NCBI GenBank assembly: GCA_026396805.1
Contig: JAPLVZ010000011.1
Coordinates: forward strand, 54,135-118,134
DNA from: Candidatus Falkowbacteria bacterium
GTDB lineage: Bacteria; Patescibacteriota; Patescibacteriia; Patescibacteriales; UBA12465
DNA length: 64,000 nucleotides
Direction: 5' to 3'
Part shown: piece after piece, positions 4,552 to 52,814 of the stretch
How positions within the stretch are numbered: the first letter of the stretch is position 1
Layout: each line of letters begins with the position of its first letter
Translations under genes and position numbers: made by a program
Notes under the pieces: generated by a model
The model's input: the letters and a program-made list of their open reading frames with translations, nothing else
Database searches by the model: none
Told to the model about the DNA's origin: nothing

Positions 4552-4638
4552 GCCCGAGTGTCGAAACTGGTAGACGATCACGACTCAAAATCGTGCGGCC
4601 TCACGGCCATGAGGGTTCGACTCCCTCCTCGGGCACCA
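4552..4638 (+). tRNA. tRNA-Leu(CAA), class II long variable arm, CCA encoded
   Basis: Hand-folded. Acceptor GCCCGAG/CTCGGGC; anticodon arm CACGA-CTCAAAA-TCGTG; variable arm GGCC-TCAC-GGCC; T arm GAGGG-TTCGACT-CCCTC; 3' end ACCA. Confidence 0.92.
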
Positions 4639-5967: not shown

Positions 5968-6302
5968 TGTTTATCGAAAATGCAATTTTGCTCGCGTACG
6001 CCACAACAATCATTTCGGAAATCGCAATCATTCTCGCGATACAACGCCCGAGGGAAATTTGGCAGTGGATAGTTGCGATATTCCTTATTAACTCTTTAAC
6101 TCACCCTCTAGTCATATATCTGTTGCGTGTGCAAGGTGCGCCATATATTCCGGTTGAATTTGGAACATTCTTAATAGAAATGATTTGGTATAAATTGGCG
6201 TTTAATTTGAATTGGAAGCGCTCAATGATTGTTTCAGGGATAGCAAATGCTTTTTCAATTATTGTTGGCGTTGGTATAAGATTACTTTTTGGTTTACAAT
6301 AA
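5967..6302 (+). CDS. hypothetical small integral membrane protein
   Basis: 111-aa ORF with 3-4 hydrophobic segments. Its start overlaps the stop of the upstream gene (ATAATG coupling). Confidence 0.6.
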   Translation: MFIENAILLAYATTIISEIAIILAIQRPREIWQWIVAIFLINSLTHPLVIYLLRVQGAPYIPVEFGTFLIEMIWYKLAFNLNWKRSMIVSGIANAFSIIVGVGIRLLFGLQ

Positions 6303-6493
6303 ATAGGCGGCGCGCCAGTTTCACTGGCACGAAATTCGGCGGCGGCGGAAAGCGAGTGCGGGCAAAAATTCCTTCCCCCCAACCCCCTTCCTTTTTGCCC
6401 GCCCGAGCGTTCAGTTTTGGTTCTGCCGCGCGAAGCGCGGCAATCAGTCAGTTTCGTTCAAAATAGGTTCGAGCAGAGTTGTATAATTCCACC

Positions 6494-11855: not shown

Positions 11856-12292
11856 GTTATTAGAGCAGCCGTAAGCCGGATTCTGTTCTAGCGATCATTT
11901 ATCTAGGCGCGCCATTGCTGGCGAGCTCGAGCGAGCTACTTACCTTAACTCGTTCCGCCATCCGCCAACCGGCGGAGGCGGACGAGTTAGTTTGCTCTTG
12001 CTTCTGATAGGGTTTACCACGGCATCTCCGTCACTGGAGGCCGAAGCCGGTAGCCCCGAAGGGCATCCAGCCACTTTTCACCTTTGATTCTGTCAAAAAT
12101 TCCAGAATTAGTATTGTCTCTGTGGCACTTTCCCTAATCCATTTAGTCTTAAAACGAGACTAGCCCGTAAATTAAGAAAAATAGACCGGTGGGCGTTACC
12201 CACTATCATATTTGCTTATAAATAAACAAATTACGAAGTCCGGACTTTCCTCTCTATTAAAAATAGAGCAATCGCCCGCTTACTCTAATAAC
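11856..12292 (-). ncRNA. rnpB: RNase P RNA, bacterial type A
   Basis: Minus-strand read contains GAGGAAAGTCCGGACTTCG, GTGGGTAACGCCCAC, AGGGAAAGTGCCACAGAGA, GCCGTGGTAAACCC..AAGCAAGAGCAAA and CCTAGATAAATGATCGCTAGAACAGAATCCGGCTTACGG. P1 pairs GTTATTAGAG with CTCTAATAAC. Confidence 0.9.
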
Positions 12293-40609: not shown

Positions 40610-41110
40610 ATGCAAACTCCCTATCGAAAAAAAGAAACTTATATCCGGCCCAAAGCCGACCCGAATATCACGCCTGAAAAATTCGCGGCTTTAGGTGTGA
40701 AACTGAAGCGAATGAAAGAAATTGACCGCCCCCGCTTAAGTGAGGAAACTAAACGCTTAGCCGCAATGGGTGATTTCTCGGAAAATGCCGGTTATCAACT
40801 GGCTAAGAGTCGCTTGCGCGGTCTTAACCAGCGCATTTTAGACAGCGAAGATTTATTGAAACGAGCGGAAATAATCGCGCCTAATCCGGATAAAAATTCT
40901 ATCGGACTAGGCCATAGCGTGACGGTGGAAGTTAATGGCCGAATAAAAACTTATCAGATACTCGGTTCAACCGAAACCAATCCTATGAGCGGAGTCATCT
41001 CCTATAGTTCCCCGCTCGGCGCGGCCTTGCTCGGCCATAAAGTCGGCGATATCGTCTCCGTCGCCCTTAGCGACCGCGTCGCTCGGTATAAGATTATCGC
41101 GATTGATTGA
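40610..41110 (+). CDS. greA: transcription elongation factor GreA family
   Basis: 166 aa. GDFSENAGYQLAK in the coiled-coil and a C-terminal FKBP-like SYSSPLGAALLGHKVGDIVSV. Confidence 0.88.
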   Translation: MQTPYRKKETYIRPKADPNITPEKFAALGVKLKRMKEIDRPRLSEETKRLAAMGDFSENAGYQLAKSRLRGLNQRILDSEDLLKRAEIIAPNPDKNSIGLGHSVTVEVNGRIKTYQILGSTETNPMSGVISYSSPLGAALLGHKVGDIVSVALSDRVARYKIIAID

Positions 41111-41156
41111 GCTCCGCTCTTTCAATCATCTCTTTTAATCATCATTCCGATTTATA

Positions 41157-41184
41157 TTGACATAACCGGAGTATTTGCTAGAAT
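41157..41184 (+). promoter_or_regulatory. promoter TTGACA-16-TAGAAT upstream of the GIY-YIG/tRNA-Asn unit
   Basis: TTGACA 41157-41162, TAGAAT 41179-41184. Confidence 0.55.
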
Positions 41185-41249
41185 ATAAACATAAAATGTT
41201 TTTAAAGCATTTTTGTTTTTTGAAGGGAGCGCGGAAGCGTTTCCTAAAC

Positions 41250-41297
41250 AATTTAATATTCCCGGGTAGCGCTCCGCCAGCTGGCGGAGGTAGCGCA
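41250..41297 (+). repeat. upstream partial copy of tRNA-Asn 5' flank + acceptor/D-arm, interrupted by an 18-nt perfect palindrome
   Basis: AATTTAATA-TTCCCGGGTAGCGC-[CTCCGCCAGCTGGCGGAG]-GTAGCGCA. It matches 41537-41573, where the bracketed part is AGCG. Confidence 0.85.
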
Positions 41298-41302
41298 TTT
41301 AT

Positions 41303-41569
41303 ATGTATTATGTCTATGCTCTATACAACGAGCGCAATAATAAAATATATATAGGTCAAACCTGTGATTTAGAAAAGAGGCTGATTTTACATAATAGTAA
41401 AATTATAAAGAAATCATACACCTTTCGATTTAATGGTTCTTGGGATATAGTTTATAAAGAAGAGGTTAAAGATAGAACGTCCGCCTTAACTAGAGAAAAA
41501 CAATTAAAAAGTTATCAAGGCAGAATATTTATTAAAAATTTAATACATTCCCGGGTAGCGCAGCGGTAG
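41303..41569 (+). CDS. GIY-YIG nuclease family protein (stand-alone URI domain)
   Basis: 88 aa. YYVYALYNERNNKIYIGQTCDLEKRLILHN..REKQLK. The last 7 codons and the TAG stop lie inside the tRNA-Asn gene (41549-41569). Confidence 0.8.
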   Translation: MYYVYALYNERNNKIYIGQTCDLEKRLILHNSKIIKKSYTFRFNGSWDIVYKEEVKDRTSALTREKQLKSYQGRIFIKNLIHSRVAQR

Positions 41570-41860
41570 CGCAGTTGGCTGTGAACACATTAGTTCTAAA
41601 CGCAGCTTCCTCAAGTAATTGAGGTCGAATAACGAGGTGAATTGCTGGAAGTCTAAATCCGTGAGGATAAGATAATCAGCAGCCAAGCCCTGATTTTCAG
41701 GGAAGGTTCAGAGACTATCCCGTAAGGGAGTACTTCTCTAATTCTTAGAGCAGGAAGCGCCTCGCATCCATTTCAATGGATGATGATATAGTCCACCCCA
41801 CTTGGAAACTAGTGGATAAGTGTAACCAATTGGTCGTCGGTTCGAATCCGACCCCGGGAG
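41549..41860 (+). tRNA. tRNA-Asn(GUU) interrupted by a group I intron (exons 41549-41582 and 41823-41860)
   Basis: - Acceptor TCCCGGG/CCCGGGA, discriminator G.
- D arm GCGC-AGCGGTA-GCGC.
- Anticodon stem GTTGG/CCAAT; spliced loop CTGT|TAA.
- T arm GTCGG-TTCGAAT-CCGAC.
- CCA not encoded. Confidence 0.8.
41583..41822 (+). ncRNA. group I intron (240 nt, ORF-less) in the anticodon loop
   Basis: - Conserved core: GCAGCCAAGCCC (41679-41690), GTTCAGAGACTA (41706-41717), GATATAGTCC (41785-41794).
- IGS GCAGCT (41602-41607) pairs with exon GGCTGT, giving U.G at the splice site.
- The intron ends in G.
- GTAA-tetraloop hairpins are present. Confidence 0.85.
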
Positions 41861-42086
41861 CAAGCATAAAATAGGCTAATATTAGCCTATTTTTTGTTAT
41901 AAAAAAGTAAAATATACTGTCTAAAATATCAAAGTGTGACGTTATTGTGACATAAAATAGATATTTTTTAAGTGAATAAAAATATCTGTTAAATGAGTCA
42001 GGCGGGCTCTCTTGACAAAAAAGAATGCATATTGTATTATTTTTTGATAGTTAAAATCATATTGTTGAACCTTAAAAATATAGAAA

Positions 42087-42386
42087 ATGAAAAAATATTG
42101 TTTAGGCAATCAGCCAGAAGAATATGAGTTAAGGGAAGATTATTTGGGATGGCTTCCAGAGAATGATGAAGATTGGGGGGATCTGTGTTTGGAATTTATC
42201 AAAAATACAGAATTAATAATCGTTAATCCCCAAAAAACTAAGAAAACTCTTTTCTTTCATAATTTCATCATCAAAGATGCCTTTCCGATGAGTTTTTACG
42301 GAGAAGAGAGGTCAAAAAAATGGAATAATTTTGCCATCGTTTCGGAAACTGAAACTTCGGAAAAATTCATTATCCCCTTGTATTAA
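42087..42386 (+). CDS. hypothetical protein
   Basis: 99-aa ORF in a very AT-rich segment. Confidence 0.45.
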   Translation: MKKYCLGNQPEEYELREDYLGWLPENDEDWGDLCLEFIKNTELIIVNPQKTKKTLFFHNFIIKDAFPMSFYGEERSKKWNNFAIVSETETSEKFIIPLY

Positions 42387-42678
42387 AATCCTATTAAAAA
42401 ACTAAATAAGGAGAAAATACAAAAAACCCTGAAACTGTTTTAGTTCCGGGGTTTTTAATTTGTCTAAACTAATTCTTACAACAAAAAATACGTTAAACAG
42501 TTCGGTAAATATGTAATCCGCGGAGCGAAGCTTGACAGAAATATAGCTATTATGCTATATTTTTGTGTTATGCAGCACTTTAACAAAACTAACTTTTAGT
42601 TAATATTTGTTGGATTATCTAAACCTCTTTATTGGGGGTTAAGATAATCCAATCAATACTAATTTAAAAAATCAAAGA

Positions 42679-43140
42679 ATGAAAAATTTATTAATTGTTT
42701 TCGCAGTAGTGACGTTAAGCGCCTGCAACCAGCACTCCCCATCAAAATATCCGGCCGTTACTTCAGCCGATATGGATATCGTCGCAAGAAAAATGCAAGA
42801 TGGGAGTTTGCCCAAAGCATCCGGGTATGACGGCTCTATGTATTTTGCGAATTTACCGGATAATGTATTATCCGGGCCTTATTTGACTTTTCTAAGATCA
42901 AATAAGGGGGGCATTTTCCGTATTGAGGTAACGACCACCATTAAGGGTCCTGGTGCGGGAACAAGAATAGATGTTGACTCCGCCGGCAGAATAATAAGAG
43001 CCTGGGGTTATTCTAGGCCTTCTATGAATTATTACTCGGAAGTATGGCCAGAAAAGTCTTTCGCTAGCACAAAAGCTGTCAACTTTTATGTTGACCTGCA
43101 AAGAGCTGTAATTAATTATATTAAAAATTACAGCGAATAA
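42679..43140 (+). CDS. hypothetical lipoprotein
   Basis: 153 aa with a lipobox signal MKNLLIVFAVVTLSAC. Confidence 0.65.
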   Translation: MKNLLIVFAVVTLSACNQHSPSKYPAVTSADMDIVARKMQDGSLPKASGYDGSMYFANLPDNVLSGPYLTFLRSNKGGIFRIEVTTTIKGPGAGTRIDVDSAGRIIRAWGYSRPSMNYYSEVWPEKSFASTKAVNFYVDLQRAVINYIKNYSE

Positions 43141-43152
43141 ACAATATATTTT

Positions 43153-43183
43153 AAAAAGGGGAACAATTCTTCCCCTTTTTTTA
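43153..43183 (+). terminator. intrinsic terminator
   Basis: AGGGGAA-CAATTC-TTCCCCT followed by a T-run. Confidence 0.7.
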
Positions 43184-43212
43184 TTTTTATCATCTTAAAT
43201 GTAGCCGAACTA

Positions 43213-43887
43213 TCAATGCGGTTCGGTAAATAAGACACGTTTAGCGCCGGCGGTATAATCTTTATTAGCCAGGTAATCGTGTAAAGCCGTCATCAGCACC
43301 TCATAAGGATAACGATAACTTTCCCCCTCGTCCGTCCCCGGGTCATTAGTGATAAATTCACCGCTCGCATCGTCGTAACCGGTGATAACAATTACATGGT
43401 AGGCCGGACCGGGGCTCGTGTAGTTAGGGTTGCTCAACAAAGGCGCGTAAACCGGAGCGATAACCGGATGGTTGGCCGCCAGCTCACCCTTGATTGCGGT
43501 TAGATCGGGATTATCAACCACGCGCGCCTGCCAGTTTAAATCACCGCTGTTTATAATTTCCACAATCCGCTCGAGAGATTCATCTTTGGAGACCGGAGCG
43601 GTGGTTTTTTTTAATTTAAAAACAGCCAGAATCTGCTCACGGGCTTTTTCCGGAGTGAGCCCTTCGTCTTTGTAAAAATTCTGGATCATTACGATCGAAG
43701 CTTCTTCGCAAGCGTTCTGCCAAGGTTCTTGCCAATTGCCCCCCGGCGCCTGGCTGGTAAAAGGAACGACGATTTTTTTAGTTAGCGGTAATTCCGGTTT
43801 TAATTTAAATATCGCGGCGACAATCAAAAGGCCCAACAAAATTGCTGAACTACCAATAATAATCACTGTTTTTCTAGAAAAATGCAT
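43213..43887 (-). CDS. C39-like (Peptidase_C39_2 / YvpB-like) cysteine peptidase domain protein, membrane anchored
   Basis: Start moved to MHFSRK (43887) to avoid overlapping the murJ start. Has a TM anchor, VPFTSQAPGGNWQEPWQNACEEASIVM (Cys) and YHVIVITGYDDASGEFITNDPG (His). Confidence 0.7.
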   Translation of the reverse strand: MHFSRKTVIIIGSSAILLGLLIVAAIFKLKPELPLTKKIVVPFTSQAPGGNWQEPWQNACEEASIVMIQNFYKDEGLTPEKAREQILAVFKLKKTTAPVSKDESLERIVEIINSGDLNWQARVVDNPDLTAIKGELAANHPVIAPVYAPLLSNPNYTSPGPAYHVIVITGYDDASGEFITNDPGTDEGESYRYPYEVLMTALHDYLANKDYTAGAKRVLFTEPH

Positions 43888-43971
43888 ACTGTAATTTAAT
43901 TGTATCACAGCTGTTTTGTTTGTCAAAAATAGGTTATAATTTAGAATAATAAGCTGAAAAAATAAAAGTGT

Positions 43972-45330
43972 ATGAAGCAACGATTAGCAAAATTGATTCC
44001 GGCCGGCAGCCTAGTTTTGGGAATTACCATCTTAATCTCCTATCTGTTAGGCTTAGTCCGCGATCATTATTTCGCTCAAGTCTTTGGCGCGACTAGAGCC
44101 CTTGACGCTTATAACGCCGCTTTTTTAATTCCTGATCTATTGTTTAATATTCTAGTGGCGAGCGGGATTGCGGCGGCTTTTATCCCGATTTTGACCGAGC
44201 TTTTAAAACTTGACGTTAAACGGGCCAACAAATACGCCAACTCCGTTATTACCGCCGCCATTGGATCAATGATCATCACTTCGATAATCATTATTATTTT
44301 TGCCGACCCGATCAGCGCTCTGGTAGTCCCGGGATTTAATCCGGAGGATCGCGCTCTGGTGGCTAAAATTCTTCGCCTCTTATCTCTCTCACCCATATTT
44401 TTTGGAATCTCCAACGCCATCGGCGCCATGCTCGTAACTAAGCGGCGCTTTCTTTTTTATGGTCTGTCGCCGATTTTATATAATTTAGGAATAATCGGCG
44501 GAACAATTCTGCTCGCACCGCGTTTTGGAATTACGGGCGTAGCCCTAGGCACTGTCGGCGGCGCTCTTTTACATTTCGCCGTCAGATTTTGGGACGCGCG
44601 GCGGTCCGGTTTTATTTTCAGTTTGAACTGTTCTTTCAGGACCGCGGAGTTTAAACAAACTCTCAAATTAATGCTGCCGAAAATGCTTGGCCATCCGATT
44701 GAGCTCGCTACTTTTTGGGCGTTTACGGCTATTAGTTCCACTTTAGTCCCCGGTTCGGTGGCGGTTATGAGTTTCGCCAGAAATTTCGAGAGTGTTCCGG
44801 TCAGTTTAATCGGTATTACTATCGCCACCACCACTTTTCCGATTTTAGCGCTGGCGATTGTGGATCGTTCGATTGACCGTTTTCGCAAAATTTTAAAAAA
44901 TTCTTTTTTGTTGATATTTTTTACCAGTATCGCCGCCGCCCTGGTTACTTTTTGGATTAAAGAGCCTTTAGTGCGAATCGCTTTGGGGGGCGGAGCGTTT
45001 ACAACCAGTGATATCGCCAGAACCGCGGCGACCTTAGGAATGTTTACTCTGGCGATACCGACCGAAGCCTCCATCCAGCTTTTGGCGCGCGCTTTTTATG
45101 CCACAAAAAACACGATTATTCCGGTCGCGTTAAGTGTCGTGGGCTTTGTTATCGCCGTCGGCGGCGCCTATTTATTAGTTCCGCGCTATGATATTTTAGC
45201 TCTGCCTTTAGGATTTTTTATCGGCAGCGCCGTGGAATTAATTTTTCTGGCCGTTTTGATTTCTGCCAGGACGCGGCGATTGTTTAGTTCCGTTTCCAAA
45301 AATGAACAAAGTTGTTATGAGCGGTTTTAG
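43972..45330 (+). CDS. murJ: lipid II flippase MurJ (MviN)
   Basis: 452 aa, polytopic. LGLVRDHYFAQVFGATRALDAYNAAFLIPDLLFNIL is typical of the MurJ N-terminus. Confidence 0.88.
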   Translation: MKQRLAKLIPAGSLVLGITILISYLLGLVRDHYFAQVFGATRALDAYNAAFLIPDLLFNILVASGIAAAFIPILTELLKLDVKRANKYANSVITAAIGSMIITSIIIIIFADPISALVVPGFNPEDRALVAKILRLLSLSPIFFGISNAIGAMLVTKRRFLFYGLSPILYNLGIIGGTILLAPRFGITGVALGTVGGALLHFAVRFWDARRSGFIFSLNCSFRTAEFKQTLKLMLPKMLGHPIELATFWAFTAISSTLVPGSVAVMSFARNFESVPVSLIGITIATTTFPILALAIVDRSIDRFRKILKNSFLLIFFTSIAAALVTFWIKEPLVRIALGGGAFTTSDIARTAATLGMFTLAIPTEASIQLLARAFYATKNTIIPVALSVVGFVIAVGGAYLLVPRYDILALPLGFFIGSAVELIFLAVLISARTRRLFSSVSKNEQSCYERF

Positions 45331-46187
45331 TTCGGATAAACGACGATAATGGCTTTACGGCCGGTGGGAATATCTTTTTCTAACCCGATATCATTTAATT
45401 CGCCGCCGCCATAGGGCGCGTCATGAATGGCGTCATATAAAACATTCGCGTCGTAAACATAATTATTACCTCTCTTTGTACCGACATCATTAGTAATAAA
45501 ATCACCGTCTTTAGTCAGGCCTTTGATCACGAGCATGTGATAAATCGGTCCGGGTTGGCGATAATACGGGTTACCGATCAGGCGGCCGGCTAAGGGGACG
45601 ATAACGGGTCGTCCGGCCATTATTTGCGCTTTAATGTCGGCCAGCGAAATATCATAATTAACATCCACCCGTTTATAATTAAAATATTCTTTTAGAATTC
45701 GTCCGGTTTCTTTGGCTGTGGTGTGTTCATAATAGCCGAAGGTTTTATTTTCCCAATCTACTATTTTAAGAATTTCTTGTTTAACTATTTCCGGAGTCAG
45801 CTCGGCGCCGGTGTAAAAGCGGTCGACTAAAAGAGCTGAAGCCTCTTCGCAGGCTTCCGCGTACGGCAAACTCCAATCTCCATAAGGCGCTTGAGCCGAA
45901 AAGGGTACCGCTAAGTTGAGGCCGGCAAATTTATTGGCGGCGGCGGTCGGGGACGGCGTGGCTACATTAACGGACGGCGTGGCTACATTAACGGACGGCG
46001 TGGCCGCGTTAACGGACGGCGTGGCCGCATCTTTAACGGTCACATCTTTAACTTCGGTTGGTAATTGCCGTTTCTCTAATTCTAAAGTAACGTCGCGAAT
46101 ATTACCGCGAAGAAAAAAAGCGGAAATTCCGATAATTAGTAAAACCCCGACGGCTATTAGTATTTTTTTCATACTTTTATTATACAA
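45327..46187 (-). CDS. C39-like cysteine peptidase domain protein (paralog of 43213-43887)
   Basis: 286 aa. TM anchor, ATPSVN repeats, VPFSAQAPYGDWSLPYAEACEEASALL and YHMLVIKGLTKDGDFITNDVG. Confidence 0.7.
   Translation of the reverse strand: MYNKSMKKILIAVGVLLIIGISAFFLRGNIRDVTLELEKRQLPTEVKDVTVKDAATPSVNAATPSVNVATPSVNVATPSPTAAANKFAGLNLAVPFSAQAPYGDWSLPYAEACEEASALLVDRFYTGAELTPEIVKQEILKIVDWENKTFGYYEHTTAKETGRILKEYFNYKRVDVNYDISLADIKAQIMAGRPVIVPLAGRLIGNPYYRQPGPIYHMLVIKGLTKDGDFITNDVGTKRGNNYVYDANVLYDAIHDAPYGGGELNDIGLEKDIPTGRKAIIVVYPN
45951..46037. repeat. 21-bp in-frame tandem repeat (about 4 copies)
   Basis: GGACGGCGTGGCTACATTAAC appears twice, then 2 diverged copies. Encodes (A/V)ATPSVN. Confidence 0.85.
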
Positions 46188-46304
46188 ATTTATTCAATAT
46201 TAGGCAATACTTACGGCTCGGACATTGGCCGTCCCTCTAAGGGAGCCAAAAAAATTCCTCGTCATTTGACGGGGAATTTTTCTTTTATTTAGGCTGTTTA
46301 ATTT

Positions 46305-46553
46305 TTAATTCCGCAGAGCTTTAACAATCCAAATAAGGACTACCGCTCCAAGCAACGCCACCAGAAAGCTGTACAAATTAAAACCACCCACCCCGCTCTT
46401 TCCGATTAAACTCATTATCCAGCCGCCGAGCACCGCGCCGATGATACCAACTATAATGTTTAGCACAAAGCCTTGCTGGGCATTGGTTTTCATAATCATC
46501 GAAGCAATCCAGCCGACCAAGCCTCCGAAAATTATCCACAGAATGATTCCCAT
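46305..46553 (-). CDS. GlsB/YeaQ/YmgE (transglycosylase-associated) family membrane protein
   Basis: 82 aa. MGIILWIIFGGLVGWIASMIM...GAVLGGW pattern. Confidence 0.85.
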   Translation of the reverse strand: MGIILWIIFGGLVGWIASMIMKTNAQQGFVLNIIVGIIGAVLGGWIMSLIGKSGVGGFNLYSFLVALLGAVVLIWIVKALRN

Positions 46554-46614
46554 AAATTTTGTTTTAATTAATAAAAATAAGCACTTATCAGAATGACTTT
46601 TATCAGAATGATTT

Positions 46615-46971
46615 TTACTTATCCTCTTCGTCTAACTTAGCCGCCGCTTCCGGCGTCGACACTGTTTTGCTCATAAAAAATATCTTAACAATGCCCCAAG
46701 CAATCAATAAGTAGACTAACATCGCTAAAAGCGTAGTCCACTCGAAAACACTGCCTTCGACCTTGGTAGCCCGGAAGACGTTAAGAAACGGAGTGGCAAA
46801 AGGATAACTGACCGTGTAAATAAAATTACTGAAACCGGCGGAAGCATTAGCCGCGAGCAGCTTTAAGATAAAACGAAAAGCTAATAACACCTCGAGCAGA
46901 CCAATAATATACCAGACAATTTGCGTACCGCGATAAAGCGGCTTGGTTGAGGGAGAATTATACGAATCCAT
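46615..46971 (-). CDS. YggT family membrane protein
   Basis: 118 aa. LLEVLLAFRFILKLL...PFLNVFR pattern. Confidence 0.75.
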   Translation of the reverse strand: MDSYNSPSTKPLYRGTQIVWYIIGLLEVLLAFRFILKLLAANASAGFSNFIYTVSYPFATPFLNVFRATKVEGSVFEWTTLLAMLVYLLIAWGIVKIFFMSKTVSTPEAAAKLDEEDK

Positions 46972-47066
46972 ATATTTTTAGATTGATTAATTTTTTAGAC
47001 TTAACACGTGGTTACGACCATGACCGCGCGTTTATTAATTATGATTTAATTCTAATACTTAAATTA

Positions 47067-48128
47067 TCAGTTGCTCACCGGGTTGCCGATTTTATAGTTG
47101 GTGAAAAAAGTGTCAGGAATATCGGCGACGTTTTTTGCCCATAAGGCTCCGTAATATTTCGTGGCGATAGCCGGATTTATCATCAAGCGAAGCGTGCCGT
47201 TACGATCAACAGCATAGACCTTGGAGTCGGTTTGGATTTTTACTAATTTGACGCCCGGGCGATAAGTAACATTTCCGCCCAAGAGGATTTTACTCAAATC
47301 TTCAGGCGCGATTATCTTAACAGTGGAAAAATCTTTATACCAAGTGGCGTAAGTTTGGGCGTTCGGGAAGACGTAGCGCTTGCCGTCTGAACCGCAATAA
47401 TAGACCGAGGAAATCGAAGGAGTGCGTATCAGTGAACCGGGCGCGCAATAAACCGTCGCTCCCGGAGTCACAACCAATCCTTTATCGGAATTAATAGTCG
47501 GGCTGGCGGCCTTGGCGGCGGCGACATCATAAGCGGAGATTTTCAGGGCGGCGTTTAAATATGGATACGGATCAATAGCGCTATCATCCGGCAAACGAAT
47601 TTCAAAATGGAGATGCGAGACGGTCGCCTCGGCGTTCCCGGAATCGCCGACCCAGGCGATATGCTGGCCTTGAATAACCTGTACGCCCCTTTCAATACCC
47701 GGCGCGTAGGCGTACTGCAATCCGCCGTTACCGTCATCCGTCCCCGGCGTGTCGTTATTGATGTGAAGATAATTGTACTTGTAGCCGTCGTCGCCGGCAA
47801 TCGAAAGCATATAGCCGTAACTCGGTTCAGTCAGCGACGCGGAAACTATCCTCCCGCCCCGGGCGGCCACAATGAGCGTCATCTTTGGCGCTATCAGATC
47901 ATTGCCTTCATGGATGCGGCCGCCGCTGCGCCCATCGCCGAAATCATCGGTAAAGCTCGCTCCTCCCTGAACGGGAAAAACAATGTCGGGCGGCCCGGAT
48001 GGTGTGATGGTCAAAGACTCGTACCAATCGTTATGCCAGCCGTTATCAGAATAGACCTGCGCACTCGCTAGAGATGGCGCTAACAGAGTCGCGACGATTA
48101 GCACCGATAGGGCGAGGCGGCTGTTCAT
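47067..48128 (-). CDS. M23 family metallopeptidase with C-terminal ~120-aa module shared with the S-layer-like protein
   Basis: 353 aa. Signal peptide; HEGNDLIAP (HxxxD) and GDSGNAEATVSHLHFEI (HxH). The C-terminus SVYYCGSDGKRYVFP..LGGNVTYRPGVKLVKIQTDSKVYAV..FFTNY is the shared module. Confidence 0.88.
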   Translation of the reverse strand: MNSRLALSVLIVATLLAPSLASAQVYSDNGWHNDWYESLTITPSGPPDIVFPVQGGASFTDDFGDGRSGGRIHEGNDLIAPKMTLIVAARGGRIVSASLTEPSYGYMLSIAGDDGYKYNYLHINNDTPGTDDGNGGLQYAYAPGIERGVQVIQGQHIAWVGDSGNAEATVSHLHFEIRLPDDSAIDPYPYLNAALKISAYDVAAAKAASPTINSDKGLVVTPGATVYCAPGSLIRTPSISSVYYCGSDGKRYVFPNAQTYATWYKDFSTVKIIAPEDLSKILLGGNVTYRPGVKLVKIQTDSKVYAVDRNGTLRLMINPAIATKYYGALWAKNVADIPDTFFTNYKIGNPVSN

Positions 48129-48206
48129 ATTTTATTAATCATACCATTTTCTCGGAAAATTTGACAAGTTCTTGAATTATTTTTTAAACCATGTTATCAT
48201 AATTAT

Positions 48207-48340
48207 ATGGTTTCAAATAAATTCCAAACAGCAAGTCAGAATTGGCGGACTGCCTATAATATTGGGTAGCTGGTTTTTTGTTTAAAATTTATTTTTTAAA
48301 ACTACCCGATATATGATTTATTGGGTAGTTTTTATTTATT
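48207..48340 (+). promoter_or_regulatory. transcription attenuator candidate: 20-codon mini-ORF with one Trp codon + mutually exclusive antiterminator/terminator hairpins
   Basis: - Mini-ORF MVSNKFQTASQNWRTAYNIG* spans 48207-48269, with TGG at 48243-48245.
- GGGTAG (48264-48269) or GGGTAGTTTT (48323-48332) can pair with AAAACTACCC (48298-48307).
- The second hairpin is followed by TATTTATT. Confidence 0.5.
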
Positions 48341-48442
48341 AAAGCTTTATCTTATGTATTATTATTTTCACAATCGATCCACCCAGCCTTGGCGACTCGG
48401 TTTGGCGCGCTGATTTATTTATTAATTATAAATTTAAATTAT

Positions 48443-49642
48443 ATGAAAAATTCCTTAAAATTATCACCCGATCAGACCGGTTATTTCGGCGAATACGGCG
48501 GACAAATTATCCCGCCGGCCTTAAAGCCGATTTTCGATGAGATTGCCGTGGCCTATAAAAACGCTCAAGCCGATCCTAATTTCCGAGCCGAATATGAGAG
48601 CCTGCTGAAAAATTATGTGGGCCGACCGTCGCCCCTATATTACGCCCGTAACTTGTCGGAGAAATTAGGGGGCGCGAAAATCTATTTCAAGCGCGAAGAT
48701 TTAAACCATACCGGGGCGCATAAAATCAATCATACTTTAGGCGAGGCCTTACTGGCTAAAAGGATGGGCAAGACTAAACTGCTCGCGGAAACCGGCGCCG
48801 GTCAGCACGGCGTCGCTTTGGCGACAGCCGCGGCCTTGGTCGGTCTGGCCTGTGAAATTCATATGGGCGAGATTGATATTGTCAAACAGCATCCCAATGT
48901 TATCCGCATGCAACTGCTGGGAGCGAAAGTAGTGACTGTAAAATCCGGCGGCCGCTGCTTGAAAGACGCGGTTGATAGCGCTTTTGAGGCTTTCGTCAAA
49001 GATCCGCAGAATATCTTTTTCGGCATCGGCTCGGTTGTCGGCCCGCATCCCTTTCCGATGATGGTCAGAGATTTCCAATCCATAGTCGGCAAAGAAACCC
49101 GGGTTCAAATCTTAGAACAAGCCGGCCGACTGCCCGATTATCTGGTTGCCTGTGTCGGCGGCGGTTCCAACGCCATCGGTTTATTCCATGAGTTTTTAGA
49201 CGACCGGGACGTAAAAATGATCGGGGTTGAACCGAGCGGCAGAAGTTTTAAGCCGGGCGACCACGCCGCGACTTTAACTTTAGGAAGACCGGGCAATATT
49301 CATGGAATGTTCACTTACCTGTTGCAGGATGATAAAGGCCAGCCATTACCGGTCCATTCTATCGCTTCGGGCTTGGACTATCCCGGCGTCGGACCGGTTC
49401 ACTCGGATTTAAAAGATAAGGGCCGAGTAACTTATGAGACTATTAATGATGCCGAGGCACTGGAAGCTTTTCAGGTTTTGACTAAAATTGAAGGAATAAT
49501 TCCGGCGCTGGAAAGTTCTCATGCCGTGGCCCAGGCCATCAAACTCGCGCCCAAGCTAAACTCCGATAAAATTATCATCGTCAATTTATCCGGTCGGGGA
49601 GACAAGGATGTTGATTATGTGGCGGAGAGATTGAAGTTATAA
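48443..49642 (+). CDS. trpB: tryptophan synthase beta chain (stand-alone)
   Basis: Start set at MKNSLKL (48443). [27 protein letters not shown] (PLP lysine), GGGSNAIG. Confidence 0.92.
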
Positions 49643-49656
49643 ACGCTTTTCCCTCT

Positions 49657-50913
49657 TTAATAATCCCTTAACTTTTCCAGCCCCTTGAACTTCCGAATCT
49701 TCTCTAGAGATTTAGATTCTATCTGGCGGATGCGTTCGCGCGTAACCTCAAACTCCCGTCCCACTTCTTCCAGAGTATGGGCCACTCCGTCAATCAGCCC
49801 GAAACGCATCTCTAAAATCTTCTGTTCGCGCGGCGAGAGCTGAGCGACGATATTTTTCACGTAATCTTTTAATAATTGCAAAGCGGCCGCCCGATCCGGC
49901 GTCACATTCTTTATGTCTTCGATAAAATCTTCCAGAGTCGAATCCTCGTCGTCATCGCCGATAGTCGTTTCCAAAGAAATCGTATCCTGGGAAATTTTCA
50001 TGATGTATCGCACCTTCTCTATATCTTCTCCCATTTCCGAAGCGATTTCATCGGCCAAGGGTTCGCGGCCCAGTTCTTGAATCAGATTGCGCTGGACCTG
50101 CTGGAATTTATTGATGGTTTCCACCATATGAACCGGAATCCGGATGGTTCGGGACTGATCGGCTAAAGCGCGGGTAATCGCCTGGCGGATCCACCAGGTC
50201 GCGTAAGTGGAAAACTTATAACCCTTGCGATATTCGAATTTTTCCACGGCGCGGAATAAGCCGATATTCCCTTCTTGGATAAGATCCAATAAGCTCATGC
50301 CTTTGGCGCCGGCAAACTTCTTGGCGATAGAAACGACGAGGCGCAAATTCGCTTCAATAATCCTCTTTTCCGCTTCTTTATCGCCTTTCTCTTTCCGCTT
50401 CGCCAGTTCCACTTCTTCGTCGCCGCTTAGCAAGGCGACCTTGCCGATTTCTTTCAAATACATTTGGATGGAATCGGCGCTTAATTTTGATAAATCAATA
50501 TTTAAGGCGTTCTGATGCGCCAGGGCTTTTCCGGTTAACGGCGGTTCCTGGGCTTTCTTCTCGACGGTATCTAAAATGCGACCGGAATCTTCCATAATTC
50601 TGACTCCGCTTTTCTGAAGGTCGCCCAAAAAGACATCATACTCATAAACATACTCTTCCACTTCCGGAAAAAGATATAATAATTCGGTTTCCGTGATAAA
50701 ACCGCGCAGCCGCCCCTTCTCAATCAGTTTTTTCAACTGCTCTTCGGTCGGTTTGACGACCGGTTTTGGTTCCCTTTTAGGCGCACCGGAAGCGTTTTTT
50801 TTCGAAGCCGCTTTCCCGGCCGTTCTGAATTTCGACTTAACCGTTGATTTGGGCGCTGATTTCGATGTTGTTTTTTTAGTTTTTAGCTTGGTATTTTTTA
50901 CCATATGTGACAA
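49657..50913 (-). CDS. rpoD: primary RNA polymerase sigma factor RpoD
   Basis: 418 aa. [68 protein letters not shown]. Confidence 0.94.
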
Positions 50914-50972
50914 AATGGTTATTTTTTTTAGCCAGCGGCTATTTATAAAGCAGTTATTTATGAAATAATTAT

Positions 50973-52814
50973 TTATGAAGCGGTTATTTTTCTTAATTCA
51001 TCCATCAAGACGTTGAGCCGCTCGTTGTCGCCGGCAGATTCGGCGGCGGCGATTTCGCGCTGGAGACTATGCACTTGCCGCTGACGGCTATATTTCTTAA
51101 GTTCAACGATGATATTAATTATTTCGGCTTTAACAGACTCGACGCCATAATCATAAAAATCTTTTTCTCCCAGCAGCACGAGTTTATCCAAAGTTTTTTC
51201 CGAACCGCCTCCGTCTTCAGTCAAATAGGCGCGAAAACTTTCATAATTCAAAGAGGCAGATTTATTATAATAGATAATTAAATCTCTGTAAAACTTAGCC
51301 AAAGCTTCGTTGTTTAAGATATCAGGGTCAAGATTGTCGACACTATAGGAAATAAACTCCGGAAATTTAATAAGTAAGGACATTAAAAGCTCGACCAATT
51401 TATCATCGCGACTCATCTCGGGCGCCAAGAACTCTTTTTTAGCCTCATTTTTGTCAGGCTTGGTGTTTCTGACGCCTCCGGCTTTTAAGACGCCGTGTTT
51501 TGATTGCCACTTCACAAATTCTTCGCGGGTATCAGTCTCGGAAAACCCGAGCTCCTCGCTTATTTTTTTCAGCCAATGCCCCTGTTCCATCTTACTGACA
51601 ACCAAATCTATCATCGCGAACATTTTTAAACTCACCGCGCGCTTATTGTCGAGGATGTTTAAATCCAGGCCGGCGCTCACTTTCTCAAAATAATATTCCA
51701 GCATCGGCTTAGCGCTCGCGACCGCAGTTTTGAATTCTTCGGGATTATTTTTCAAACATTCATCGGGGTCCTTACCCGAACTTAAAACGATTATTTTCAG
51801 ATTCATTTCTTGAGCCAACGCTTCCTTGATTCCCCGGTCGGCGGCCATTTGACCGGCGGCATCCATATCAAAGAGCAAAGCGACATTAGGCGTAAATCTT
51901 TTTATTAAAGCGACCTGCTCGGATGTTAAGGCGGTTCCCGACGACGCGACTACGTTCTTAAAGCCGTGATTATGGCAAGAAATGGCGTCCATTTGGCCCT
52001 CCACGACGATTGCCAGATCATCAGCCCTAATCGCGCTCTTGGCCTTATTTAGGGCAAATAAAACCCGGCTTTTATCATAAACCTTGGTCTGCGGGCTATT
52101 GATATACTTCCCCATTTTTTCGGTCTTTTCTTTATTCGGGTTAACTCGAGCCGTGAAAGCGATTAAGTTATCATTGACGTCAAAAATCGGAAACATTATC
52201 CGATCGCGAAAACGGTCGTAATAGCCGCTCCGCCGTCCGGCGGACGCCGCCACCGGCTCTTTCTTGATAGTCAGGCCGGCCAAAAATATTTCTTCATCCG
52301 TATATTTTTTCCCGGTTAAAGGTCGAGCTTTTAAGAAATCATATAAGCCGCTCCAGGAATCAAGACTATAGCCCAGATGCCAATCGGAAATATTTTCGTC
52401 GCTTAAACCGCGCTTCAATAAGTATTCGCGCGCGACCAGACCGGTCGGCGTCGTCAAAATATGAGCATAATATTTTCCGGCTAATTCCAAAATATCTAAG
52501 ATCCGGTTGCGCTCGGAATAGTCCTGCTGATTTTCATATTGCAAAATCACGCCGGCTTTCGGAGCGAGTAAACGCAGAGTTTCCATGAATCCCAGTCCTT
52601 CCTTTTCCATAATGAAAGAGAAAACGTCGCCGCCGCGGCCGCAGCCGAAGCAATGCCAAATCTGTTTTTCCGGAGAAATGACAAAAGACGGGGACTTCTC
52701 GTTATGAAACGGACAGAGCGCTTGAAAATTAGCGCCGACCGTCTTAACGGTAATATATTCCCTGATGACCTCCACGATATCCAGTTTTGATTTTATTTCT
52801 TCCGCCTGGTTCAT
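50973..52814 (-). CDS. dnaG: DNA primase DnaG
   Basis: 613 aa. Zinc ribbon [34 protein letters not shown] and TOPRIM VVEGQMD. Confidence 0.93.

Follow-up and report, generated by a model that had tools for sequence, protein, structure and literature searches.

Does an asparagine tRNA gene whose anticodon is interrupted by 240 nucleotides (nt) still give rise to a working tRNA, and what is the short nuclease gene that runs into its 5' end? Both questions are raised by a locus in 64,000 nt of DNA from Candidatus Falkowbacteria bacterium (assembly GCA_026396805.1, contig JAPLVZ010000011.1, positions 54,135 to 118,134 of the forward strand); this whole stretch is referred to as the window. A first-pass annotation, made from the sequence alone, had placed a group I intron between nt 35 and 36 of a tRNA-Asn(GUU) gene, and a covariance-model match, splicing in silico and the conservation of helix P1 all bear this out. 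We are highly confident that the locus is a functional Patescibacteria tRNA-Asn(GUU) gene, split between U35 and U36 by a self-splicing 240-nt subgroup IA intron that lacks an open reading frame (ORF) and belongs to an already described family of tRNA-Asn 35/36 introns.

The split tRNA-Asn gene and its group I intron

The gene, the intron and the flanking signals were located as follows:
41157-41184, plus strand: sigma-70-like promoter, TTGACA, 16 nt, TG-TAGAAT; 11 of 12 consensus positions, extended -10
41549-41582, plus strand: tRNA-Asn exon 1, 34 nt; tRNA nt 1-35, with the acceptor 5' strand, D arm, anticodon stem 5' strand and C32 U33 G34 U35
41583-41822, plus strand: group I intron of 240 nt without an ORF; architecture of subgroup IA, last base the terminal G (omega-G) 41822
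41823-41860, plus strand: tRNA-Asn exon 2, 38 nt; U36 to discriminator G73
41868-41900, plus strand: intrinsic-terminator-like hairpin followed by a T run; just 3' of the tRNA and the sole terminator-like site in 41050-42000

When the two exons were joined in silico, ARAGORN read them as tRNA-Asn(gtt) with a 7-nt loop CTGTTAA, U1:A72 and a discriminator G, which is the canonical cloverleaf that had been proposed for them. The CCA end is absent from the gene, the 3' end being followed by CAA. The anticodon stem pairs across the intron, and compensatory changes were found at all five of its pairs, each in 1 to 17 sequences. A Logan assembly made independently from a different run (L214) had no mismatches in 550 nt over 41303-41852, so the split arrangement is not an assembly artefact or a chimera.

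The covariance model RF00028 (Intron_gpI) matched 41602-41815 on the plus strand with all of its 253 positions (1-253), at 86.2 bits and an E-value of 1.5e-20, well beyond its gathering score of 50 bits. The three core elements claimed for the insert were found as GCAGCCAAGCCC at 41679, GTTCAGAGACTA at 41706 and GATATAGTCC at 41785. We searched for relatives with a pattern built from the two P7 strands (GTTCAGAGACTA, 50-80 nt, GATATAGTC), which was scanned against one genome per GTDB species. At least 119 stretches matched. Every U/G combination was then spliced around each match, and ARAGORN-valid tRNAs with the junction in the anticodon loop were kept. At least 48 further loci were found in which a tRNA-Asn(GTT) is split after nt 35 by a homologous intron. 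These are titled Saccharibacteria, Parcubacteria/Paceibacterota, Uhr-, Kaiser-, Doudna-, Peribacteria and so on, and are mostly Patescibacteria; some third-party bins among them are labelled Gammaproteobacteria. The closest relative among the matches listed was L039 (JBAZTY010000001.1, Patescibacteria group bacterium), where the split tRNA-Asn lies at 6075-6385 on the minus strand. Its intron is 92% identical to that of the window, and the exon sequence is 100% identical in L039 and in five other Patescibacteria loci.

The helices P1-P9 were drawn on the window sequence and their pairs counted in 38 homologues whose introns measure at most 262 nt, aligned with MAFFT. The resulting model is:
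41579-41605, plus strand: P1; C32-U35 and intron nt 1 (41579-41583) with the guide CGCAG (41601-41605)
41609-41624, plus strand: P2, hairpin CCUCAA-GUAA-UUGAGG with a GNRA loop; both-side changes in 6/6 pairs, 98.7% of cells paired
41633-41639 with 41758-41764, plus strand: P3, CGAGGUG with CGCCUCG; encloses P4-P6 and P7.1/P7.2
41643-41706, plus strand: P4-P5-P5a and P6-P6a domain; supported by covariation and comparison with L039
41643-48 with 41676-81, plus strand: P4; pair 41646/41678 (alignment columns 120/159) covaries, UA in 29 and GC in 9
41651-54 with 41670-73, plus strand: P5; U-A changed to C-G relative to L039
41657-60 with 41665-68, plus strand: P5a; GUGA loop
41683-84 with 41705-06, plus strand: P6
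41688-93 with 41697-41702, plus strand: P6a; compensatory changes in 5/5 pairs, C-G changed to G-C relative to L039
41713-41717 with 41789-41793, plus strand: P7, the guanosine-binding helix, GACUA with UAGUC; pseudoknotted with P3, perfectly paired, conserved core of RF00028
41718-41729, plus strand: P7.1, UCCC-GUAA-GGGA; 96.9% paired, 3/4 pairs changed on both sides
41733-41741 with 41745-41754, plus strand: P7.2, one bulged C; length-variable, its exact pairing a reading of the alignment
41766-41781, plus strand: P8, hairpin AUCCAU-UUCA-AUGGAU; compensatory changes in 5/6 pairs, A-U changed to G-C relative to L039
41798-41815, plus strand: P9, hairpin with a GAAA tetraloop; compensatory changes in 6/7 pairs, 81.6% of cells paired

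Across the 38 homologues 86.2% of the cells were paired, compared to 33-44% when the 3' partners were slid by 1-3 columns, and 44 of the 73 pairs had changed on both sides. The covariation score was 0.371 against 0.133 for shuffled alignments, and none of 500 shuffles reached the observed value in any measure. RNAalifold on its own recovered the anticodon stem, P1, P2, P3, P4, P5, P6, P6a and P8, and the minimum-free-energy fold of the single sequence gave the same helices with z = -3.57. For P3, which RNAalifold predicted independently, 97% of the cells were paired and three of the seven pairs showed compensatory changes. The core helices P3-P8 and the P3/P7 pseudoknot that characterize group I introns are kept by compensatory substitutions. 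A first version of P7.2 with an outer CUUC/GAAG stem was dropped, since only 43% of it was paired across the homologues; the version adopted from reading the alignment, rather than from a count, is CUUCUCUAA/UUAGAG(C)AGG, with a conserved AAG left as the junction.

The comparison with L039 gave the same picture at short range. The two introns differ in 22 alignment columns. These comprise four double compensatory changes (in P5, P6a, P8 and P9) and three single changes that preserve a pair, the rest being located in loops; the sole helix loss is the terminal pair of P7.2, removed by an indel. This pattern is the signature of selection on the intron fold.

The 5' splice site is fixed by P1, whose loop holds a small GAAC/GUUC hairpin. 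The pairs CG, UA, GC and UG of P1 were invariant in all 38 homologues, and the wobble U35.G41602 among them marks the splice site, as had been expected. Next to them, intron nt 1 pairs with the base just 5' of the guide, and the two covary (GC 19, AU 7, CG 7). The internal guide had originally been given as GGCTGT with GCAGCT (GCAGCT at 41602). Its inner part CUGU/GCAG was kept in 38/38 homologues, but its two outer pairs, which involve G30 and G31, were not conserved: they were unpaired in 13/38 and 15/38 homologues, respectively, and they compete with the anticodon stem. The G predicted to terminate the insert, G41822, was likewise invariant in 38/38.

With respect to subgroup, the intron carries a 38-nt insertion relative to the RF00028 consensus between P7 and the 3' strand of P3 (41718-41754), which forms the hairpins P7.1 and P7.2. 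Michel and Westhof are said to have defined subgroup IA in 1990 by P7.1/P7.2 in this position. A recent survey counts 25 of 28 introns at position 35/36 as IA, and it places no tRNA intron of Patescibacteria in IC (Nakagawa et al., 2026, PMC13011429). The window intron is therefore of subgroup IA, and the two-hairpin insertion together with the classing of the 35/36 introns leaves the IC3 assignment tentatively suggested before without support.

The first-pass annotation also knew of no tRNA-Asn case, but such introns are in the literature. Williams (2020, bioRxiv 10.1101/2020.01.27.920355) extended the four classical types of bacterial tRNA intron to 21, including a tRNA-Asn type that is cited as 'Asn.4Ug' in the later survey (Nakagawa et al., 2026). 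That survey (mSystems, PMC13011429) reported 15 tRNA-Asn(GUU) and three tRNA-Asp introns at 35/36 in 95 complete Patescibacteria genomes, a phylum in which this insertion site is strongly enriched. One member of the family was found to self-splice accurately in vitro, with a terminal-G-to-C control and with sequencing of the product giving the 35/36 junction. It was rare for a genome to have an additional, intron-less gene for the same anticodon, endonuclease genes were present only in introns above 500 bp, and the Patescibacteria tRNA introns were argued to be largely immobile for want of homing endonucleases (PMC13011429).

The window intron is a member of this family, since all the defining features that could be tested were found in it: host tRNA, site, phylum and IA-type architecture are the same. 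It is 240 nt long compared to a mean of 257 bp, is ORF-less like most members, and is missed or mis-called by ARAGORN as published for the others (PMC13011429). No endonuclease ORF is present within its 240 nt, so it does not have the make-up of a mobile intron with its own endonuclease. Its identity is 71% with the intron of GCA_016700035.1, the one spliced experimentally, and 74% with a member from GCA_016699245.1 (Paceibacteria); global identities to four introns of Table S3 of PMC13011429 were 64-74%. It comes from a draft metagenome-assembled genome (MAG) and is not among the 15 listed from complete genomes, and the window has a GIY-YIG cassette at the tRNA 5' end, whereas PMC13011429 makes no mention of GIY. 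The phenomenon has thus been described before, and the window sequence adds one more well-supported instance to the list without opening a new question. What does change is the size of the family, which with at least 48 loci among species-representative genomes is far larger than the 15 complete-genome cases.

The classical bacterial tRNA introns, of subgroup IC3, are those at 34/35 of tRNA-Leu(UAA) and 33/34 of tRNA-fMet in cyanobacteria, and those at 36/37 of tRNA-Ile(CAU) in Azoarcus and tRNA-Arg(CCU) in Agrobacterium. Like these, the window intron is a small ORF-less ribozyme in the anticodon loop, predicted to self-splice, with a P1 formed from anticodon-loop nucleotides, a U.G wobble, a terminal G and an anticodon stem retained in the precursor. 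Unlike them it is an IA intron with P7.1/P7.2, sits at 35/36 and occurs in another isotype and another phylum.

The host is patescibacterial, as judged from the proteins encoded around the gene. The GIY-YIG protein (P0001) has a counterpart at NCBI with 100% identity, named from a MAG of Candidatus Falkowbacteria (Parcubacteria group, Patescibacteria group), and two proteins encoded at 49657-52814 are 97% and 84% identical to those of L039 (Patescibacteria MAG JBAZTY01).

Other matches to the P7 pattern fell in other tRNAs. Six loci (L010, L033, L072, L079, L089 and L122), from Vibrio, Photobacterium and other Gammaproteobacteria, have a like P7 core and spacing in a tRNA with the anticodon CAU, probably Ile2, with the junction at 36/37. 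L070 (Campbellbacteria) has an intron with a like P7 core and spacing at 35/36 of tRNA-Asp GTC. Both groups fit the published phylogenetic closeness of such IA introns. About half of the at least 119 matches lay outside any identifiable tRNA.

Predicted splicing pathway and alternative readings

Expression of the gene would proceed as follows. The promoter at 41157-41184, which is also kept upstream of the cassette-less orthologue in L039, would serve the whole unit, consisting of a tRNA remnant, the GIY-YIG ORF and the split tRNA-Asn; the hairpin at 41868-41900 is the putative terminator. In the transcript the tRNA body, including the anticodon stem, would fold, and the intron would fold into P2-P9. 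P1, formed by C32-U35 and intron nt 1 with CGCAG, would put the U35.G wobble at the active site, a pairing backed by conservation and covariation. A free guanosine bound in P7 would attack after U35; the terminal G41822 would then take the guanosine site, the 3'-OH of U35 would attack after G41822, and U35 would be joined to U36 to restore the GUU anticodon. RNase P would be expected to remove the 5' leader, and CCA would have to be added enzymatically, because it is not encoded.

A number of observations weigh against this reading or blunt its support. The splicing chemistry of the window copy is predicted by analogy with the 71%-identical member spliced in vitro (PMC13011429), and the subgroup is based on architecture and literature rather than on the score of a subgroup covariance model. 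The invariance of P7 is uninformative, because the search pattern fixed both of its strands, and the MAFFT alignment is unreliable in the length-variable tips of P5a, P7.2 and P8. No conserved P10 was found to link the P1 loop with the 3' exon: the maximum in the window is 3 bp (GUU/AAC), and P10 is impossible in homologues with P1 loops of 3-5 nt, so that exon alignment presumably relies on the anticodon stem in place of P10. Finally, ARAGORN found no second tRNA-Asn within the 64-kb window, a census that covers the window only.

Two other readings of the gene were considered, and we regard both as very improbable. The boundaries could lie 2 nt further upstream, with splicing after U33, the intron ending at G41820 and a tRNA-Thr(UGU) split at 33/34 as the host. 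Table 1 and Fig. 3 of PMC13011429 record this ambiguity, and ARAGORN and tFind often make the tRNA-Thr call for the family. The window has both U33 and a G lying two bases ahead of the accepted terminal G, so the rule of a U at -1 and a terminal G does not decide by itself, and the splice enumeration also gave Thr(tgt) 33/34 as a product acceptable to ARAGORN. P1 separates the two. A U.G wobble is the defining mark of group I 5' splice sites, and in P1 U33 forms a Watson-Crick pair with A while it is U35 that forms the invariant U.G; moreover, the covarying pair at intron nt 1 makes sense only if P1 runs past U35. The terminal base required by the tRNA-Thr reading is A in 8/38 homologues, whereas the accepted terminal G is present in 38/38. 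U1:A72 and G73, which we take to be as in E. coli tRNA-Asn, speak for Asn over Thr. An intron-less tRNA-Asn(GTT) with exactly these exons exists in L138, and the sequenced spliced product of the family member had its junction at 35/36 (PMC13011429). The other reading takes the intron as decaying and dead for splicing and the tRNA-Asn copy as a pseudogene, backed up by a functional tRNA-Asn gene that has no intron and lies at another place in the genome. It draws on the fact that only 64 kb of the genome is visible and that the intron has no homing endonuclease to maintain it. Decay is, however, hard to reconcile with a window copy in which every core position invariant in the 38 homologues is intact, with helices that are kept relative to the 92%-identical L039 save for the one terminal pair of P7.2, or with the four double compensatory changes between the two; the exons are 100% conserved and a predicted promoter and terminator flank the gene. 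A functional tRNA-Asn(GUU) gene split at 35/36 remains by far the best explanation.

The GIY-YIG cassette at the tRNA-Asn 5' end

Upstream of exon 1, and overlapping it, the window carries a second element:
41260-41297, plus strand: tRNA-Asn 5' remnant; nt 1-13 (41260-41272), a palindrome, and the D-stem 3' strand TAGCGCA (41291-41297)
41303-41569, plus strand: ORF of an 88-amino-acid stand-alone GIY-YIG nuclease; PF01541 58.1 bits, catalytic domain alone

The last six codons of the ORF and its TAG stop codon are nt 1-21 of the tRNA-Asn. In the remnant a perfect 18-nt palindrome, TCCGCCAGCTGGCGGAGG (41273-41290), replaces the D loop. The closest listed relative, L039, lacks the cassette; its sequence aligns to the two flanks of a 289-bp unit, about 23 nt of it being aligned twice, and the insertion point is formally tRNA nt 13/14. 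The cassette is thus present or absent at a defined site between close relatives with identical exons.

The GIY-YIG protein has 266 homologues at E <=1e-5, nearly all of 81-90 amino acids and almost all encoded beside a tRNA-Asn gene. In 39 homologues Y5, Y16, G18, R26 and E65 were invariant and H30 nearly so (at least 90%), and the C-termini of the homologues, ...I-P-R/L or ...S-x-V-A-Q-R, are translations of the tRNA-Asn 5' end. The context of the cassette was counted on 80 metagenome loci encoding a GIY-YIG relative. Downstream of the ORF they have:
54 of 80 loci: intron-less tRNA-Asn(GTT), directly abutting
4 of 80 loci: group I intron immediately downstream; tRNA-Asn 35/36 confirmed for three, the contig ending within the fourth
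8 of 80 loci: tRNA-Lys, tRNA-Thr or tRNA-Phe, directly abutting
Rest of the 80 loci: contig truncated or tRNA further away

A palindrome (at most two mismatches) preceded the ORF in all 45 analysable cassettes, and in 40 of these 45, including 5/5 analysable tRNA-Lys cases, the upstream remnant matched the 5' end of the cognate downstream tRNA. Cassette loci listed were the window (41260-41569, plus strand), L069, L047, L126, L128-L133 and L134-L213. Three units stand in tandem in L069 (-835 to 0 relative to the tRNA), and L047 has a single one with a different palindrome. Two tandem cassettes were seen at a tRNA-Lys in L213, and nested palindromes in L143, L146 and L151, where a 16-nt TCCGCCAG(C/T)TGGCGGA unit lies at the centre of another copy. 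Nested palindromes and tandem arrays suggest repeated insertion, or cleavage and repair, at one spot.

The 88-amino-acid protein has no recognisable DNA-binding domain. The family model TIGR01453 scored 24.3 bits against a cut-off of 56 and covered residues 4-37 only, and a search of PDB sequences with a GIY-YIG profile gave no match at E <=1e-3. No description of the cassette or of its palindrome was found in the searchable literature, where nothing relevant was met beyond T4 SegB, a free-standing GIY-YIG homing endonuclease encoded in a tRNA cluster, whose target is a conserved motif of tRNA genes and which spreads together with the tRNA genes beside it (PMC2330249). Like SegB, the window ORF is a GIY-YIG gene outside any intron and among tRNA genes (PMC2330249), and it has weak PHROG and TIGR01453 similarity over the GIY-YIG motif. 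Unlike SegB it encodes only 88 amino acids with the catalytic domain alone, is cellular rather than from a phage, has its stop codon inside the tRNA and is preceded by a duplicated tRNA 5' fragment with a conserved palindrome. T4 SegB is the nearest precedent for the cassette and its putative nuclease.

From this arrangement we infer that the cassette may be a tRNA-Asn-gene-specific, homing-endonuclease-like mobile element that regenerates the tRNA 5' end and rides on the tRNA promoter. It would enter at the D loop (formally nt 13/14) and leave behind a dead tRNA 5' fragment with the palindrome (T/G)CCGCCAGCTGGCGG, while regenerating an intact tRNA 5' end and borrowing the promoter of the tRNA. 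Conserved tRNA nucleotides, either U8-A9-G10 or the TAG at nt 19-21, would supply its stop codon. The tRNA sequence may itself serve as homology arms, which would explain the cassette's occasional jumps to tRNA-Thr and to tRNA-Lys, the remnant in the latter case matching its new host. The cassette might now and then also co-convert the intron, which lies 22 bp away.

Intron and cassette occur in three states with identical exons: both together in the window, the intron only in L039 and the cassette only in L138 (tRNA gene at 1394-1465). They have therefore been gained or lost independently. We tentatively propose, as a possibility that we hold with less than even confidence, that the Patescibacteria tRNA-Asn gene is a shared landing site for two independent selfish elements, namely the known IA intron at 35/36 and an apparently undescribed cassette of about 290 bp encoding a minimal GIY-YIG protein of 81-90 amino acids. 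A closer relationship, in the manner of 'collaborative homing', is in our view unlikely. Here the nuclease would cut an empty tRNA-Asn near the D loop, and repair would co-convert the intron 22 bp away. The GIY-YIG ORF directly upstream, its formal insertion at nt 13/14, the variable presence of both elements among alleles with identical exons and the recognition of a conserved tRNA-gene motif by T4 SegB (PMC2330249) would all accord with it. Nevertheless, the two elements were not found enriched with each other: the cassette was present at only about 5 of the 49 listed intron loci, and against 54/80 cassettes abutting an intron-less tRNA-Asn only 4/80 abutted an intron, which is no higher than the 15 introns in 95 genomes (PMC13011429). 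The protein is also a bare catalytic domain without a recognisable DNA-binding domain, and its cleavage activity is putative.

The cassette could matter more than the intron and is probably the most interesting thing at the locus: a family of nuclease genes is built into this tRNA gene throughout a phylum whose tRNA introns are argued to be largely immobile (PMC13011429). If the nuclease cuts DNA, the cassette would represent a new minimal tRNA-gene-targeting mobile element and the protein a candidate compact sequence-specific nuclease.

Six Logan contigs from six runs (L001-L006) all stop about 16 nt past the GIY-YIG stop codon, i.e., about 3 nt into the intron. This suggests an assembly-graph branch at that point, possibly arising from co-occurring strains that are alike in exon 1 and carry different intron variants.

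tRNA complement and surroundings of the window

On the 3' side, tRNA-Asn and the conserved downstream genes are separated by about 7.8 kb in the window (41900-49650) and by about 3.1 kb in L039. In two other lineages, L129 (1829-3258) and L131 (1809-3258), tRNA-Asn is followed directly by a gene for a large serine recombinase. The differing interval and the recombinase genes suggest that the 3' side of tRNA-Asn may be a hotspot of integration as well; no directly repeated copy of the tRNA 3' end, which would have pointed to a genomic island, was found in the window.

Without its intron mode, ARAGORN missed the split tRNA-Asn and saw only a tRNA-Leu(CAA) at 4552-4638 (plus strand) in the 64 kb. 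The intron-detection check suggested for the locus succeeded in part: the spliced exons were read as tRNA-Asn(gtt), but the unspliced locus was mis-called as tRNA-Tyr(gta) with a 223-nt intron and a bogus long variable arm. This call was rejected, and the enumeration of U/G splice pairs was preferred. Where default finders miss the gene, the genome would be scored as lacking tRNA-Asn and its completeness estimate lowered. If this is the sole tRNA-Asn gene, the translation of every Asn codon would depend on ribozyme activity, and the view of the first-pass annotation that viability would then hinge on splicing is reasonable.

The tRNA-Leu(CAA) reached 50.5 bits on RF00005 in a local scan, yet was absent from the Rfam scan of the whole window at gathering thresholds. 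That scan is therefore not a reliable tRNA census, its fast filters having evidently dropped a real tRNA. Besides RF00028 it matched only an RNase P RNA, of bacterial class A, at 11856-12288 on the minus strand (164.2 bits), which at 433 nt against a model length of 367 has several large insertions. The RNase P encoded here would free the 5' end of tRNA-Asn from the GIY-YIG leader.

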